64,000 bases of DNA from an uncultured Nitrososphaerota archaeon (GCA_963838925.1 CAWISW010000001.1:288001-352000), one strand, 5' to 3'; shown: positions 55,998-61,458, numbered from the stretch's first letter. Notes: a model not told the origin generated them from the sequence alone. Program-made: numbers and translations.

Positions 55998-56095
55998 CGG
56001 GCAGTTTCGGTGGAAAACGCGCGAAAAGGGTTTTAGCCATGCGTTTGCACATGGAAATCCAGCTTTTGCCGCCACCGCAGGACTCGGACGAAGGG

Positions 56096-56326
56096 ATGCC
56101 CAGGCTTGTCAGGAGGAACCCTAGCAAGCCCGTGACGAAGTACTGCGTCAACTGCCTCGCCCCGCTTGAGAAGGGGAGCGAGCTCGGCGGCTGGCTCGTG
56201 CCCCAGGACTACTACTGCAAGAAGTGCGGCTACAAGGGGTACGTCTACCTCGAGGACAGGAGGAGCGAGGACGAGGAGGAAAGGCGCGAAAAGGCGCAAT
56301 CGTCGGCCGAGCGCCGAGACCCATAA
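56096..56326 (+). CDS. Small zinc-ribbon protein
   Basis: YCVNC...GWLVP..YYCKKCGYKG. Confidence 0.7.
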   Translation: MPRLVRRNPSKPVTKYCVNCLAPLEKGSELGGWLVPQDYYCKKCGYKGYVYLEDRRSEDEEERREKAQSSAERRDP

Positions 56327-56331
56327 CCAAG

Positions 56332-57492
56332 TTGTCCCCCAAGGCGAGGGCCCTCAACCCGCCCCTCTCGGAACCCGACGACCCAGAGCCTTATCCGAAG
56401 GTGAACTGGCTCTTCTTCTTCGTCGGCATCATCATCTTCACGGTGGCTATGATGTTCGTGTCGTTCCCGGCCGGCCTCTACACCGTCTTCGGGACGCACC
56501 TCTCGAACAGCTACACAGCCTCCACCCGCGTCACCGCCCTGACCTACGACTTTGTCTTCGCGAGCGTGCAGATCCCTGTCTTCGGCCCAATCTTCAGCAC
56601 CCTGGGAGGCATCTTCGTTCTCTTCTCCGCGATCTACTTCGCGTTCCTCGTGTTCGCGGCGAGGCAGGGCTCCGGCCTCCTCGGGGCGCTCCGCTCGTCC
56701 ACCACAAGGGGGTACGACGCGCTCTTCACGAACCCCCTCGCCGCCACCACGGTGCTGGTCGGGGCGACCAGCCTCATGACCCAGCTGGTCGACTCGGTCC
56801 AGACGAACGCCGGGATCTCCACGGGATCGCTGAGTGGGGACCCGTTCTCGCTGCTCGTGGACTTCACCGTCGCCCCCCTGCTCGAAGAGACCACGTTCAG
56901 GGTGATAATGCTGGGCATCCCGGTGCTGGTGCTCTCCCTCATCCTGCTCCGGGGCTTCTCTCTGAAAAAGGCGGCCAAGGTCTTGTGGCGCCCGTCCTCT
57001 TTCTGGGACGTCGACGAGACCGAGGAGGTGGTGACGCCGCGCACATTCAGCGATACGAGCCCGTCGATCTTCCCTGACCAGCAAGCAGACTCTCTCAAGG
57101 TGAGGGCGATGAAGCCAATCGTCTACGTGTTCCTGCTCCTCTCCTCCCTCATCTTCGGATATGCGCACTACGCCTCCGGGGCCGGGTGGGGGCCGGGAAA
57201 GATCAGCGAAGCAGCCCTCGCCGGGCTCGCCCTGGGCTACCTGTATGTCAAGTACGGCTTCCACACCAACGTCCTGCTCCACTGGTCGATCAACTACGTG
57301 GGGAGCGTCTTCTCGTTCCTCGCCCAGGGCCTCTGGGGGGTGCCTTGGACCTCCAACACGGGGAGCTTCCTTGACGTCATCCCCACCGTCGAGATAATCT
57401 TCCTCCTAGGCGTGCCGTCAGCGCTCATCGTGGCAAACGAGCTGCTGAAGCAGGCAATGGGCGGGAAGAAGAAGGGGCTGCCGGCGCTCTAG
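56332..57492 (+). CDS. CPBP/CAAX (Abi) intramembrane metalloprotease
   Basis: Motifs EETTFR, FGYAHY, HWSIN in a polytopic membrane protein. Confidence 0.88.
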   Translation: MSPKARALNPPLSEPDDPEPYPKVNWLFFFVGIIIFTVAMMFVSFPAGLYTVFGTHLSNSYTASTRVTALTYDFVFASVQIPVFGPIFSTLGGIFVLFSAIYFAFLVFAARQGSGLLGALRSSTTRGYDALFTNPLAATTVLVGATSLMTQLVDSVQTNAGISTGSLSGDPFSLLVDFTVAPLLEETTFRVIMLGIPVLVLSLILLRGFSLKKAAKVLWRPSSFWDVDETEEVVTPRTFSDTSPSIFPDQQADSLKVRAMKPIVYVFLLLSSLIFGYAHYASGAGWGPGKISEAALAGLALGYLYVKYGFHTNVLLHWSINYVGSVFSFLAQGLWGVPWTSNTGSFLDVIPTVEIIFLLGVPSALIVANELLKQAMGGKKKGLPAL

Positions 57493-57606
57493 CCGCGTTA
57501 GAATCCGCATGGGTTCAGGCTGAGAAAACCATGCGTTCACTGGGGGCAATCCGACCGTGGGGTTAGATTTTGCACGGGGGAAAGTGACTTTCGGTCATGC
57601 AAAGAG

Positions 57607-57622
57607 CAGATTTATAAATCTG
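57607..57622 (+). promoter_or_regulatory. TATA box embedded in a perfect 16-bp palindrome
   Basis: CAGATTTATAAATCTG, with the TATA about 30 bp upstream of ATG 57641. Confidence 0.65.
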
Positions 57623-57640
57623 GATTAACGTGAAACGGAC

Positions 57641-57778
57641 ATGGAACTCGACCAGAAGGTCAGATACGCTCTAGTGGCTTTCGCTCTAACCTCGGCAATC
57701 CTGGCAGGGCTCGGGATTCACACGGGGCAGCTAGGCATGCACTTGAAGGCGCTAGAGATCGGCGGCGGGATGGACTAG
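57641..57778 (+). CDS. Small hydrophobic/secreted peptide (45 aa, not in ORF track)
   Basis: Manual translation: MELDQKVRYALVAFALTSAILAGLGIHTGQLGMHLKALEIGGGMD. It has its own strong TATA. Confidence 0.7.
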   Translation: MELDQKVRYALVAFALTSAILAGLGIHTGQLGMHLKALEIGGGMD

Positions 57779-57784
57779 CGGTCG

Positions 57785-58957
57785 CTAGCTTAGGTCTCGA
57801 ATCTTAAGCACGATGCCCTCGAGGCGGGGCATGAGCGCGGCGCTGTCAAAGGTCCAGCGGCCGGTCCGCTCGTCCCAAAGGTTGTGGCCTATGGTGAACG
57901 ACTTCATCTCCCTCCTGTCGAGCAAGAACATCTCTGCTCTGTTTCCATAAGGCTTCAGAAGCCTCTTCAGATACTCGAGCGCTTCGTTCACGACTTCCAG
58001 CGGGAAGAACAGCTGCGAGTAGTAGGCGTCGCCCGCGGCCTCGGACCAGAGGAAGGGAAGGCGATTCAGCATGCTCCGAAGCGTCATCTTCTCCTGCTCG
58101 CTCATCTCGCGGACGATCAGCGAGACGCCAAGGTACTCGTGCTTCCCGAACTTCTGGAGCCTTTCGGCGCTGAAGTCGTACTTCATTCCGTTCCAGGTTA
58201 TCGAGTAGTCCCTGATTAGCCTCTGGCCCAGGACGTGATGCGCGTAGTGCCAGCCGAGCGTCTTGTAGTTGACGTCGATGCCGTTCACCTTCTTGATTGC
58301 CGCCCGAATCTCCATCAAGGAGCGGTCGCCGTCCTTCCAAAGCTCCTTCAGGATGAGCAGGTCGATCTTGTCCACTCTCTTCCTCTCGGAGATTGTTGCC
58401 CGGGCGGCTCTTTCGTCGACGGGTGGCGGCCTGCTCCAGTCGAAATCCCAAACGCCCTCGTCGAAGTTGAAGCACTCGGCTCGCATCGGCGAGACCCTGA
58501 ACCAGGGGCAGTCGAAGAACTCGACCGAAGAGAAGACCCCCTTCTCCGCAAGGCTCTCGATGAAGCGGTGGAACTCCTTAGTGAACTCTCGCGGAACTCC
58601 GGCGTGGACTATGTACGTGTCTTGAGGCATGGTTCCCGCATACGCCACGACGTAGCACGTCTCGCTCATCGCCTCGAAGAGCTCGTGCGCCTTCTTGCTG
58701 TAGGGGTCGCAGACCTTGAGCTTCATCACGACCCTGGTCAGTCCTAGGGCGCCGTAGTCGACGTCTGCCTTTATCTGAAAACCCCTCTTGACTATCTTCT
58801 CCTTGTATCGGTACCTGACGCTCTCCTTGAACTGCCCCAGCCGCCTCGATATCTCGGCGATGTCGGGACCTATCTCCGTGATCAGCTTTACGAGCGCGAC
58901 CGTGTTTTCACTGGCATCGTGCTGAACTCCGTCGCTTTGTGGCGGCACGACATCCAA
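57785..58957 (-). CDS. Tandem (two-module) Lrp/AsnC-like transcriptional regulator
   Basis: HTH1 IAEISRRLG..KESVRYR with VDYGALGL; HTH2 DKIDLLILKEL..DGDRSL. Each is followed by an effector-like domain. Confidence 0.75.
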   Translation of the reverse strand: MDVVPPQSDGVQHDASENTVALVKLITEIGPDIAEISRRLGQFKESVRYRYKEKIVKRGFQIKADVDYGALGLTRVVMKLKVCDPYSKKAHELFEAMSETCYVVAYAGTMPQDTYIVHAGVPREFTKEFHRFIESLAEKGVFSSVEFFDCPWFRVSPMRAECFNFDEGVWDFDWSRPPPVDERAARATISERKRVDKIDLLILKELWKDGDRSLMEIRAAIKKVNGIDVNYKTLGWHYAHHVLGQRLIRDYSITWNGMKYDFSAERLQKFGKHEYLGVSLIVREMSEQEKMTLRSMLNRLPFLWSEAAGDAYYSQLFFPLEVVNEALEYLKRLLKPYGNRAEMFLLDRREMKSFTIGHNLWDERTGRWTFDSAALMPRLEGIVLKIRDLS

Positions 58958-59065
58958 GAAATTATTACAGGCTCGAAGTACGGAGTTTCTATATTACGTG
59001 TTATGGAATGGGCTTCTAGATTCCGCCTTCTGCGAGCAGCCGAGCGCGAGTCTATTCGCAGTCTA

Positions 59066-60013
59066 CTAGATTCCGAGCGCCGAGCGCAGGCCCTTGTACC
59101 TGTTCCTGATGGTAACCTCGGTGACGCCCGCAGCCTCTGCGACGTCCCGTTGGGTCTTGTCCTCACCTTCGAGGGTGCAGGACACGTAGAGCGCGGCCGC
59201 CGCGAGGCCCATCGGGTCCTTCCCGGCCGAGATCCGCGCCTCCTCCGCCTTCTTGAGTATCTCTAGAGCCCGCCTCTTGGTCCTCTCCGAGAGCTGCGCC
59301 CTCGACGCGATCCTCGAGACGCACTTCGTGGGGTCGACCACGGGCATCTTGATGTCCATCTCCTTCAGGAGCAGCCTGTAGCACCTGGCGATGTCCTTCT
59401 TCTTCACGTTGGAGACGTTCGCGAGGTCCTTGAGCGTCCTCGGGGTCTCCCTGTCCCTGCAGGCCGCGTACAGGGAGGCGGCGATTATCGCGGAGATGGA
59501 CCTTCCCCTCACCAGCCCCCTCTCCAGAGCCTTCCTGTAGATGTAAGCAGCCTTCTCGACAACGGCGTCGGAGACGGAGAGCTTGTCAGAGAGCCTGTCC
59601 AGCTCGCTGAAGGCCTGCCTGAGGTTCCTGTCCTGGGGCTCGTGGACCTGGCTCCTGCTGTCCCACGTCCTCAGCCTCTCCACCGTCGCCTTCATCGATC
59701 CCGAGAGAGACTTGCCGGAGGCGTCCTTGTTGACGGCTCCTATGACCGTGGCCAGGCCCATGTCGTGCATGGCTATCGAGGTCGGGATGCCGCCCCTCGA
59801 CCTGTCGTCCTTCTCCTCCTTGGAGAACGCCCTCCATTCGGGGCCCGTCTCCTCTATCTTTTCCTTTACCACGAACCCGCAGCTGCTGCAAACCAGCTCT
59901 CCCCCGGCGTTGTCCACGACCATGGGACCCTTCCCGCACCTGGGGCACTTGTCCAGCGCCTTCTGCAACCTCATCAGCCTCGAGAAATCTCTTTCAGATG
60001 ACAAGCAATACAC
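59066..60013 (-). CDS. tfb: Transcription initiation factor IIB
   Basis: Zn ribbon CPRC...CSSCG, GPEWRAF, two cyclin repeats, GKDP.GLAAA, VTEVTIRNRYK. Confidence 0.97.
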   Translation of the reverse strand: MYCLSSERDFSRLMRLQKALDKCPRCGKGPMVVDNAGGELVCSSCGFVVKEKIEETGPEWRAFSKEEKDDRSRGGIPTSIAMHDMGLATVIGAVNKDASGKSLSGSMKATVERLRTWDSRSQVHEPQDRNLRQAFSELDRLSDKLSVSDAVVEKAAYIYRKALERGLVRGRSISAIIAASLYAACRDRETPRTLKDLANVSNVKKKDIARCYRLLLKEMDIKMPVVDPTKCVSRIASRAQLSERTKRRALEILKKAEEARISAGKDPMGLAAAALYVSCTLEGEDKTQRDVAEAAGVTEVTIRNRYKGLRSALGI

Positions 60014-60116: not shown

Positions 60117-60330
60117 GAGAATCGACGGCCAGTGCAGGTTCTGTTAACTCTTCAGCTCAGGCAGTGGGCGAGTCAACTTGCTGGCATCGACTCGGAGGAT
60201 TAGGGTCTTCCTCGTCCCGTTCCCCGTCACTGCTTCACCTGCCAGCCCTTTCTCCTCCTCTATCGTGTGCGAGCGACTTTCCTCCTCTCGCCTCTCCGAC
60301 CGAGGAGAAAGGGAACGGTCGAACCTGGAC
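60117..60330 (-). ncRNA. Putative omegaRNA/reRNA overlapping the tnpB 3' end (boundaries approximate)
   Basis: Expected position for a TnpB guide RNA. GCTGGCA/TGCCAGC stem at 60180-60186 and 60240-60246. The low-complexity C-terminal tail of TnpB is encoded here. Confidence 0.55.
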
Positions 60331-61458
60331 CGCCCCCTCTCGGATAGGTTCAGGGCCGCGTTCACGTCCCTGTAAATCCACTCCTTGCACTTCTGGCACC
60401 AGAGCATCCTCGCGTGCGCGACATCACCCCTTGCAGGATTGTGGAGCTTCTCCCCACACGCCGAGCACGTCGAGGATGACCCGTAGGTCTCAGACTTTGT
60501 CAGCAGAACCACAGTCAGGCCCTTCCATGCTGCCTTGTATTCGAGCATCTTCTTCGCCTTCCGGTGGGGCCACGAGTTGAGCCTGAACCTGTAGCCTGCA
60601 CCTTGCCCGTTCCCTCTTTGGTACAACCTCCTGATGTCGGTCAGGTCCTCGATAGCAAGCGCAGCCCCTTGCCTCGCCGCGTCATCGACGATATAGTTCG
60701 TGGCCGCGTGGAGGATCTGGTCGCTCCTGTGACGGGCCCTACTCCAGTACTTGCGGGCGAGATTCCTTCGTATCCTGACGTCGTTCCTCTTGAACGATCC
60801 GACTATCTCCCTGGTCGTCTGCCTCATCTTGACCAACTTCGTCATCTCGACCAAGGTGACGTTTTCTTTATCACCGAACGTGATGTTCTTCTCGTTCCTG
60901 TCCAAGCCATAGACTCTTCTTATCTCAACAGGTTCGATGTGCTTCGAATAGCAGAGCGATAGCGAGTCGGGAGTTATGGTGAGGCTCCTGACCTTCCCCT
61001 CTGAGAGCTTCCTGACCGCATATTGATTGAGCTTTATGTCGAAATACTTGTCACGTCTCAGCGGGATGAAGAGCCTCCCCTTCATTGTGATGAAGAAACC
61101 CGAGATGATACATGAAACCGGTCTCAAAGGCCTGGGATGGGCTGCTTTGATTCCTCGCTTCTCGCCTTTGTTGCGACTTTGGACGACTGCGCAGGCGCGC
61201 GTTATCGACGCGACCTTGTAACAAGAAGGAAACTCGGTGTTCCTGAGCGTCCGGTAGAATCCCTTCATCCCCTTGCGGTTCTCAATCCCATGTGCTTCGG
61301 CGTAGTTGACTGCGTCATAGGTCGCTGTTAGACATTCGTTAAGCAGACCACGTAGCTGCTCGCTGGAATGCGATTGGGTGACACACTTTGTTGCCCGCAA
61401 CAATCATCTGGGATGCAATCGTATAAACGCGCCCATGAGCCGAAGAGTTACCAGAGCC
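60137..61458 (-). mobile_element. Non-autonomous TnpB-only element with terminal inverted repeats and 8-bp TSD
   Basis: TIRs at 60137-60158 and 61437-61458 (19/22 identical). Direct repeat CCAGTGCA at 60129-60136 and 61459-61466. No transposase gene inside. Confidence 0.85.
60144..61403 (-). CDS. tnpB: TnpB RNA-guided nuclease
   Basis: RuvC-I GLDRN, RuvC-II AIEDL, Zn finger CSAC...CQKC, RuvC-III RDVNAALN. Confidence 0.92.
   Translation of the reverse strand: MLRATKCVTQSHSSEQLRGLLNECLTATYDAVNYAEAHGIENRKGMKGFYRTLRNTEFPSCYKVASITRACAVVQSRNKGEKRGIKAAHPRPLRPVSCIISGFFITMKGRLFIPLRRDKYFDIKLNQYAVRKLSEGKVRSLTITPDSLSLCYSKHIEPVEIRRVYGLDRNEKNITFGDKENVTLVEMTKLVKMRQTTREIVGSFKRNDVRIRRNLARKYWSRARHRSDQILHAATNYIVDDAARQGAALAIEDLTDIRRLYQRGNGQGAGYRFRLNSWPHRKAKKMLEYKAAWKGLTVVLLTKSETYGSSSTCSACGEKLHNPARGDVAHARMLWCQKCKEWIYRDVNAALNLSERGRSRFDRSLSPRSERREEESRSHTIEEEKGLAGEAVTGNGTRKTLILRVDASKLTRPLPELKS

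Follow-up and report, generated by a model that had tools for sequence, protein, structure and literature searches.

A conserved small gene paired with a tandem Lrp/AsnC-fold regulator in Nitrososphaerales: a candidate archaeal pre-peptide and regulator cassette

In a 64,000-nucleotide stretch of DNA from an uncultured Nitrososphaerota archaeon (GCA_963838925.1 CAWISW010000001.1:288001-352000; the whole stretch is called the window here), a 45-codon open reading frame (ORF) lies between the gene for a CPBP/Rce1-like intramembrane protease and the convergent gene for a 390-amino-acid (aa) protein resembling Lrp/AsnC regulators. An earlier note, made from this sequence alone, proposed that the three genes might form a quorum-sensing-like circuit comparable to those of Gram-positive bacteria. 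The locus raises the question of whether so short an ORF is a gene at all and, if it is, whether its product is a signal perceived by the adjacent regulator or one of the things that this regulator controls. We found that the ORF is a real gene belonging to a family of ~40-residue proteins. The reading that we tentatively favour, with a probability of about 0.42, is that the small gene and the regulator gene make up a conserved two-gene cassette of a pre-peptide and its cognate tandem Lrp/AsnC-fold regulator, similar in plan to RRNPP or Rgg-SHP systems but with a non-homologous receptor.

A small gene convergent with a regulator gene

The small ORF occupies 57641-57778 on the plus strand and encodes MELDQKVRYALVAFALTSAILAGLGIHTGQLGMHLKALEIGGGMD. 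The 390-aa ORF runs towards it on the minus strand (57785-58957), and the two stops, at 57778 and 57785, leave 6 bp between them, as the earlier note had read them. GC content over 57450-59100, which covers both genes, is 0.55-0.60 versus 0.61-0.70 in the flanks, so the AT-richness that had been remarked on is present, as a modest dip. When 61 related genomes were searched in six frames with the 45-aa product, matches adjoined regulator matches convergently at many loci, with several paralogues per genome. A family profile built from 26 ORFs found beside regulators scored E values of 1e-15 to 1e-25 for ORFs adjoining homologous regulators in dozens of genomes, which is far beyond chance. The ATG start falls at a common aligned column in 37 of 38 unique ORFs, and the third codon position is the most variable (entropy 1.00/0.63/1.53 across the three positions). 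Conservation of the ORF, on which the earlier proposal had been made to depend, is plain: the family is under purifying selection, with the proportion of nonsynonymous differences (pN) below that of synonymous differences (pS) in 666/666 pairs and a median ratio of nonsynonymous to synonymous substitution rates (dN/dS) of 0.35 over 209 usable pairs. In a large protein collection the family amounts to 657 clusters, every one annotated as 'hypothetical' and lacking a Pfam match. One family ORF (L055/L159) has no ATG and carries charged residues in its hydrophobic stretch (TVDEEVRQVSIALADTSLVFRALG...) beside an intact regulator; it is probably a decaying copy.

When loci were collected by their regulator, a convergent adjacent family member was present in 28 of the 33 loci in a first sample; of the five exceptions, one was truncated at a contig end, two were distant paralogues and two were later found with tail-only ORFs (described below). 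A second sample collected in the same way from species-representative genomes comprised 80 loci, of which 78 could be assessed, and partly overlapped the first, with kin that are not independent. Here 75/78 loci were paired, 69 with leader-type ORFs (~40 aa) and 6 with tail-only ORFs, and 3 had none. Those relatives that carry names are recorded as metagenome-assembled genomes labelled Nitrososphaerales or Thaumarchaeota, including Candidatus Gagatemarchaeum stordalenia. Other families of the order (L086, L088, L090 and L091) keep the pair with regulators of just 25-28% identity.

A quick maximum-likelihood tree of 89 unique regulators, with Shimodaira-Hasegawa-like approximate likelihood-ratio (SH-aLRT) supports, was used to follow the peptide types. 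Mapped onto this tree, peptide labels changed 10 times against a mean of 38.9 in shuffled labellings, and 0/200 shuffles were as low. One clade of 46 rows (SH-aLRT 96) contains 36 leader-type loci, 6 tail-only loci and 4 peptide-less regulators, and the tail-only clade is nested among leader-type lineages with the tails ...LDPIGGVGP and ...LDPTGPGPLT. The leaderless forms thus appear to derive from leader-bearing ones, and the pairing of peptide and regulator is both conserved and ancient. Of the three leader-type small ORFs in the window genome itself, two lie beside regulators, and a fourth regulator there has a repeat-type peptide ORF. The third leader-type ORF, MTLDQKIRYGSMALAGAAAVAAAFGIHLSPLADIAGGAGAG (G000:C3:164475-164642, minus strand), lies directly upstream of a gene for a 343-aa multi-pass membrane protein without a Pfam match.

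Leader, tail and promoter of the small gene

The family consensus, MTLDxKVRYGMxALxGASxVLAALGLHxGPLExxGGxGxx, divides into a leader and a tail, matching the signal-peptide-like core and short tail that the earlier note had seen in the window ORF. Pattern counts across the family place the leader at residues 1-25 (57641-57715, plus strand). In the window it consists of a polar n-region (MELDQKVRY), an uncharged h-region (residues 10-22) and the c-region G-L-G. Among 37 unique members, residues 1-9 carry a mean of 2.0 lysines plus arginines versus 0.43 in the tail; residues 10-25 are uncharged in 37/37; position 23 (-3) is Ala, Gly, Ser or Thr in 37/37; position 25 (-1) is Gly in 37/37; and position 27, at +2 after the hydrophobic stretch, is His in 34/37. 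Counted in this way, by pattern alone, the leader shows the n-region, h-region and -3/-1 residues of a Sec-type (signal peptidase I) signal peptide. We infer from this n/h/c layout and -3/-1 rule that it is cleaved as a signal-peptidase-I substrate.

The remainder, residues 26-45 in the window (IHTGQLGMHLKALEIGGGMD; 57716-57778 with the stop codon, plus strand), is the proposed mature peptide. In the same 37 members the tail is 13-23 residues long (mode 15), Gly-rich and poor in Lys and Arg, with a mean net charge of -0.7 and the motif [LI]-[ED]-x-x-G-G-x-G/x. Mean pairwise identity falls along the chain, from 0.67-0.76 in residues 1-9 through 0.52 in residues 10-26 to 0.34-0.38 in the tail. 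The ratio pN/pS rises in parallel, from 0.24 in residues 1-9 and 0.30 in residues 10-25 to 0.65 in the tail (269 moderately diverged pairs from 81 unique sequences). The tail is therefore the fastest-evolving part, as expected of a specificity determinant. The earlier note had made it a test whether homologues and paralogues of the regulator each adjoin a hydrophobic ORF of 40-55 aa with a varying tail, and both the pair counts in the two samples (28/33 and 75/78) and this tail pN/pS agree with that expectation.

The tail also occurs in forms that the window locus does not reveal. Beside a distant regulator clade are ORFs of 68-80 aa with the same leader design followed by 2-3 tandem 16-residue units, LH.I..GDPGGxGGPN (L004 and L097-L099). 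The representative in the window genome is a 76-aa ORF (L004:2594-2824, minus strand; G000:C1:379180-379410), convergent with the most distant of its regulator paralogues; it has a signal-peptide-like leader and three GDPGGSGGPN repeats separated by LH.I.. spacers, and is kept in three other genomes (L097-L099). In a clade whose regulators are 41-43% identical to that of the window, the peptide ORFs have no leader at all. Some are single units of 16 residues, MxxxxxDP[IM]GGxGPS[YN] (MSTQLQDPIGGAGPSY in L061 and MNTQTEDPMGGVGPSN in L107). Others, of 39-63 aa and likewise convergent with tandem-Lrp genes, have a polyprotein-like layout of 3-5 tandem 10-12-residue units, [DE]PIGGFGPS[YCN] (L104:2295-2414, L105:2312-2503 and L106:2387-2575, all on the minus strand); the units of L104 vary at synonymous sites while the encoded peptide is unchanged. 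Further peptide variants were found in other families of the order (L086, L088, L090, L091, L095 and L096). With units tandemly repeated or encoded alone without a leader, the tail is the modular and diversifying part of the small protein, and these sequences point to it as the functional one. Six-frame searching placed repeat forms in 4 of the 61 related genomes (G001, G002, G011 and G015), and a database search with the 63-aa five-repeat peptide gave none among 849 candidates at E ≤ 0.001; such ORFs are probably either not called as genes or penalised as repeats.

The small gene appears to be transcribed on its own. Alignment of 37 family promoters on their ATG gave AT contents of 0.81-0.95 from -30 to -26 and 0.70 at -25/-24, and an AT-rich box at -30 to -24 is present in ~95% of them, which places a TATA box ~27 bp upstream of the ATG. 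Since an archaeal TATA box at this spacing would set the transcription start at or near the ATG, the gene seems to have a promoter to itself and probably an mRNA that is leaderless or nearly so. A search for sequencing runs containing part of the window gave four DNA runs, all from one study, and no RNA run. In the window, the TATA box TTTATAAA is contained, as had been noted, in a perfect 16-bp palindrome (CAGATTTA/TAAATCTG; 57607-57622, plus strand) that sits 19-34 bp 5' of the small-ORF ATG. Directly upstream of the TATA box is an imperfect inverted repeat, TTTGCAC...N...ATGCAAA (57569-57603, plus strand), with 17-nt arms that are 76% complementary. A repeat search also found two 17-nt direct repeats spaced 65 bp start to start, GTTAGAATCCGCATGGG (57497-57513) and GTTAGATTTTGCACGGG (57562-57578), spanning 57497-57578 on the plus strand; a degenerate form of the pattern has exact matches in the 64-kb window at 57498 and 57563 only.

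Across nine orthologous loci, CATGCAAAGCGCAGATTTATAAATC is conserved together with two upstream TTAGA..GCA repeats. The TGCAAAG arm of the inverted repeat, an element of putative function, is conserved in orthologues, and of the palindrome only the left arm and the TATA box are well conserved. A distinct perfect palindrome, AAGCATATGCTT, abuts the small-ORF TATA box in another paralogue clade (L028, L030, L031, L043, L045 and L049). The difference between palindromes suggests clade-specific operators, and the repeats and palindromes in general are candidate operators of the adjacent regulator.

Regulator fold and readings of the pair

The convergent gene encodes a soluble protein, with no hydrophobic segment (maximum 19-aa Kyte-Doolittle score 1.0). 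Its description in the earlier note as a two-module Lrp/AsnC-like regulator stands by its predicted fold and by its relatives, and fails on its own Pfam score, which for the 390-aa protein alone is an HTH_AsnC match at only E 0.09. Among 56 aligned relatives, an AsnC-type helix-turn-helix (HTH) was recognized by PF13404 in 28 (best E 2e-6) and by PF13412 in 13, and residues 193-230 weakly matched LrpC and ST1022 in a PDB profile search (E 0.03-0.09). An AlphaFold2 model computed from the relatives' alignment (pLDDT 87.3, pTM 0.85) shows two successive modules, each an HTH followed by a beta-alpha-beta-beta-alpha-beta domain, with three-helix HTH units at residues 15-56 and 197-243. The N-terminal winged HTH of AsnC type that characterizes Lrp/AsnC regulators (feast/famine regulatory proteins) is present, and the third helix of this first HTH is conserved and basic (E45, R48, Y49, R50, Y51 and K52). 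No Pfam AsnC_trans_reg match was obtained for the window protein or the 56 relatives, although a fold resembling the RAM (regulation of amino acid metabolism) domain was modelled twice. In a Foldseek search of the PDB the top match was the fused siroheme decarboxylase NirDL (4ch7; E 2.3e-9, 12% identity, root-mean-square deviation (rmsd) 6.3 Å, with template-modelling scores TMq 0.52 and TMt 0.62), and many single-module Lrp/AsnC regulators aligned at TMt 0.56-0.69. By HTH and modelled fold, then, the protein is Lrp/AsnC-like, with two modules fused in one chain. A large protein collection holds 607 homologues at E ≤ 1e-3, some of which one source labels 'DNA-binding Lrp family transcriptional regulator'; the window genome has four paralogues, and up to 13 matches occur in a relative's genome.

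If the two genes do form a cassette of pre-peptide and cognate regulator, the first would encode a 25-residue Sec-type signal peptide followed by a paralogue-specific tail of 13-23 residues, and the second, convergent gene a cytoplasmic transcription factor with a tandem Lrp/AsnC fold. The pre-peptide would be exported and cut after the invariant small-x-Gly site, and in clades that carry the CPBP protease this neighbour may trim it further. The tail, or a fragment of it, would then serve as the cognate effector of the adjacent regulator, reached by re-uptake from outside or, for leaderless tail-only forms, directly in the cytoplasm. The regulator would in turn bind the repeats and palindrome at the peptide promoter, giving a feedback loop and control of nearby membrane-protein genes. 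We favour this arrangement because it accounts for the signal-peptide design, for a shared leader with paralogue-specific tails and for multi-copy and leaderless tails, and likewise for the tight pairing with a double-HTH protein, the dedicated promoter and the occasional membrane protease.

Several observations weigh against it. About 37 of the 89 unique regulators stand without a small hydrophobic ORF beside them, among them entire sub-clades at ~30-34% and ~26% identity to the window protein, so a peptide gene next door is not required throughout the family. Regulator homologues at E ≤ 1e-10 are present in 24 of 151 sampled genomes of the phylum, and outside the order a convergent small hydrophobic ORF stands beside only 5 of 19 resolved homologues; one of these ORFs, of K-I-R-L / F-G-V design, is conserved in two genomes of another family of the phylum (L191/L192) and looks like a remote form. 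In the window genome, one small ORF is an orphan, next to a multi-pass membrane protein and not a regulator. The N-terminal nonapeptide is the most conserved segment of the small protein, beyond what a signal-peptide n-region needs, and this cytoplasmic end could be a functional contact. The leaderless repeat forms cannot use Sec, so a secreted role would require another exporter. The ligands of Lrp/AsnC effector sites are amino acids and other small molecules, and we know of no peptide among them. Apart from these points, comparison of peptide-linked (42) with peptide-less (18) regulators gave five discriminating columns (E53, N230, Y231, W236 and A341) with no clear cluster, and co-folding of the regulator with the small protein, whose own fold was uncertain, scored 0.00 in two runs, a result that counts neither for nor against binding.

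Adjacency would arise equally if a dedicated regulator simply stood beside its target gene, and this is the rival that survives best. Under it, the tandem-Lrp protein is the mini-gene's own transcription factor, and the peptide is its output and not its ligand, working outside the cell or at the envelope, for example in antimicrobial action or competition, in metal binding, or as an envelope or adhesion factor; in clades with a CPBP gene, the protease would then provide immunity or processing as in class II bacteriocin loci. We consider this unlikely on balance, though a serious contender. The conserved promoter with its repeats and palindrome and the signal-peptide design of the leader fit it well, secreted effector peptides, too, typically have multi-copy precursors and mature parts that evolve fast, and CPBP/Abi proteins are known to serve as bacteriocin immunity proteins. 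The leaderless tail-only forms, however, have been kept and even amplified with units that differ only synonymously, which is not easily reconciled with a product that is only secreted. Short, Gly-rich and net acidic (-0.7), the tails are unlike known cationic pore-forming peptides, and in our judgement a tail-to-tail pairing held down to ~25% regulator identity is closer than that normally seen between a regulator and one of its targets. Should the two prove to be merely regulator and target, they would still constitute a regulon unit that is clean, widely conserved and defined in its promoter architecture.

The conservation of the nonapeptide (identity 0.67-0.76, pN/pS 0.24) points to a different possibility, namely that the small protein stays uncleaved as a single-pass, 40-aa membrane tether whose N-terminal nonapeptide docks the regulator while the outer tail senses a cue, the membrane protease, where there is one, then releasing the regulator. 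An N-in orientation is predicted from charge, neighbouring genes mostly encode membrane proteins, and the His at +2 after the hydrophobic stretch (34/37) would also fit. We nonetheless regard such a tether as doubtful: at ~13-16 residues, ending in a small-x-Gly site, the hydrophobic stretch is short for a stable span; the nonapeptide is near-identical among the paralogues of one genome and so offers no pair specificity; and the conserved tail-only forms have neither anchor nor nonapeptide. The existence of these leaderless forms weakens the pure-output and tether models, and a toxin model considered below, alike.

It is improbable that the tandem Lrp-fold protein acts on the peptide as an enzyme or chaperone, by modification or recognition like that of peptides made on the ribosome and modified after translation (RiPPs), in the manner of the Lrp-fold enzymes NirDL and AhbAB. 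NirDL is the best whole-model structural match (4ch7; E 2.3e-9, TMt 0.62), but no other top match is a tandem Lrp-fold chain, so its rank may reflect architecture alone (12% identity, rmsd 6.3 Å). Many aromatic, His and Arg residues are invariant (R48, Y49, W236, H237, H241 and others), an acidic residue of invariant type precedes GG in the peptide, and repeated cores are common in RiPP precursors. On the other side, no siroheme-decarboxylase Pfam match appeared at E up to 0.1 for the protein or 0.01 for 56 relatives, up to 13 matches in one genome suit regulators better, and the first HTH has its conserved basic third helix. Identity as a siroheme decarboxylase was accordingly set aside, since the likeness is at fold level only, at 12% identity, with no family-level sequence match. 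Finally, a type I toxin-antitoxin-like locus, in which a small hydrophobic toxin would be held in check by antisense control from overlapping convergent transcripts, would suit a small hydrophobic protein encoded convergently 6 bp from its neighbour in many paralogous copies per genome, but we reject it as very improbable because conserved tail-only variants lack the hydrophobic part, selection acts on the tail motif, the partner is a conserved 390-aa protein and not an RNA, and the cleavage-site pattern fits a signal peptide.

Set against known systems, a cassette of pre-peptide and cognate regulator would most resemble the RRNPP pairs of Bacillota (Rap-Phr, NprR-NprX, PlcR-PapR and Rgg-SHP): a pro-peptide gene of 40-48 codons adjoins that of a cytoplasmic regulator, the precursor begins with a secretion-type segment and varies towards its C-terminus, and a genome holds several paralogous pairs. 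Phr and PapR have comparable precursor lengths and are exported by Sec. The present system differs in being archaeal, in that its tail units can be tandemly repeated and in that binding, export and import are putative; its receptor candidate has a non-homologous tandem Lrp/AsnC fold in place of a tetratricopeptide repeat (TPR) domain. As no TPR was found by Pfam, in the AlphaFold2 model or among the listed fold matches, RRNPP membership is ruled out and the likeness is functional only. In group III Rgg/SHP pairs the peptide gene is reported to be convergent with the regulator gene and to overlap it (PMC13361665).

Leaderless communication peptides of Firmicutes (LCP/SIP, with RopB) are described as mature-size peptides without a secretion leader encoded beside the gene of their receptor-regulator (PMC10518010). 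The 16-residue tail-only ORFs of L061 and L107 resemble them in layout; receptor fold and peptide sequence are unrelated, and the present forms appear to derive from leader-bearing ones and can carry 3-5 repeats. In Staphylococcus aureus, the CPBP/Abi protease MroQ is reported to take part in maturation of the AgrD pheromone (10.1101/2021.12.29.473670, 10.1101/516906). The gene immediately upstream of the pre-peptide gene in the window likewise encodes a CPBP protein, its motifs intact; the present case differs in that this linkage occurs in two clades only, there is no AgrB, AgrC or AgrA, and processing is putative. Each odd feature of the locus therefore has a bacterial precedent, in convergent shp/rgg pairs, in leaderless peptides and in CPBP-assisted maturation. 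As to the receptor, each half of the regulator resembles Lrp/AsnC proteins (E. coli AsnC 2cg4, P. horikoshii PH1519 2cyy and S. tokodaii ST1022 2efo; TMt 0.56-0.69) in combining an AsnC-type HTH with an effector-type domain, and differs from them in having two modules in one 390-aa chain, no AsnC_trans_reg Pfam match and a paired peptide gene. Among the fold matches, NirDL/AhbAB (4ch7) is alone in being a solved tandem Lrp-fold chain; haem d1/haem biosynthesis has no counterpart to the peptide partner or to the numerous paralogues seen here.

The favoured pairing of a pre-peptide with its cognate regulator has a further-reaching form, which we hold to be rather unlikely as a whole. In it, these would be the first ribosomal peptide pheromones of Archaea with cytoplasmic receptors: peptides of 10-20 residues, Sec-exported, polyprotein-like or leaderless, with tandem Lrp/AsnC effector domains turned receptors and many private channels per genome, reaching other lineages of the phylum (L191/L192) and perhaps other archaeal phyla. 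Archaeal quorum-sensing reports concern acyl-homoserine-lactone-like molecules and diketopiperazines. The parts of the literature covered by our searches contain no description of this peptide/tandem-Lrp pairing and none of archaeal peptide signalling with a genetically paired cytoplasmic receptor. The 657 small-protein clusters and 607 regulator homologues can be linked pair by pair into dozens of cognate and non-cognate peptide-receptor sets, which are directly testable with synthetic peptides and purified protein, without culturing. If binding proved true, peptides would join the known ligands of the Lrp/AsnC effector fold, a function could be given to many archaeal micro-ORFs, and communication or self-sensing could be put to the test in soil Nitrososphaerales that are uncultured and not model organisms.

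The protease and other neighbours

The protease gene (56332-57492, plus strand) is open from a GTG at 56224, and the TTG start at 56332 gives a product of 386 aa. Its assignment in the earlier note as a CAAX-type protease was upheld by a PF02517 match (E 1.4e-9, 38.5 bits against a cut-off of 22.4) and by three intact catalytic motifs, EETTFR (185), FGYAH (275) and HWSIN (317). With at least five hydrophobic peaks, it has the EExxxR, FxxxH and HxxxN/D signature of CPBP/Rce1-like (Abi) proteins in a multi-pass membrane protein. Every orthologous locus fetched has a CPBP gene immediately upstream of the small ORF (58-69% identity), and such a gene recurs at 33-44% identity in a second, non-sister clade that includes tail-only loci. 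In other clades its position is taken by genes for VIT1 (4 loci), MscS (2), SpoIIM (2), GtrA, an acyltransferase with a dCTP-deaminase-like gene, or unassigned ORFs. The earlier note had allowed that the protease might be only a neighbour, and this distribution agrees: because CPBP is syntenic in two clades only, peptide and regulator are the sole universal unit, with CPBP a recurrent but dispensable neighbour and possible processing enzyme. In L024, L054, L061 and L107 a dCTP-deaminase-like gene (PF22769, E 4e-8 in L024) stands between the CPBP and peptide genes, on the peptide's strand.

NCBIfam has no family for the CPBP protein, the small ORF or the regulator. Elsewhere in the window genome, a single SBP_bac_5 (Opp/Dpp-type) match above cut-off marks a possible peptide uptake component. 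A search of the same genome for amoA gave no match, but the control likewise matched in no genome, which makes this negative uninformative.

Within the window, a 95-aa ORF (56039-56326, plus strand) stops 5 bp before the likely CPBP start; it has a CxxC...CxxC arrangement and a strongly acidic/basic C-terminus, with weak zinc-ribbon matches only (E 0.018-0.06). Directly upstream of the regulator gene, on the same strand and across a 108-bp spacer, is a gene for transcription factor B (TFIIB; 59066-60013, minus strand), with a zinc ribbon and two cyclin repeats (E 3e-45). Beyond it, a 419-aa ORF (60144-61403, minus strand) resembles by eye the TnpB/OrfB proteins of IS200/IS605-type elements, with a C-terminal CxxC...CxxC, and GC content falls to 0.49-0.56 around this ORF, at 60.0-61.5 kb.

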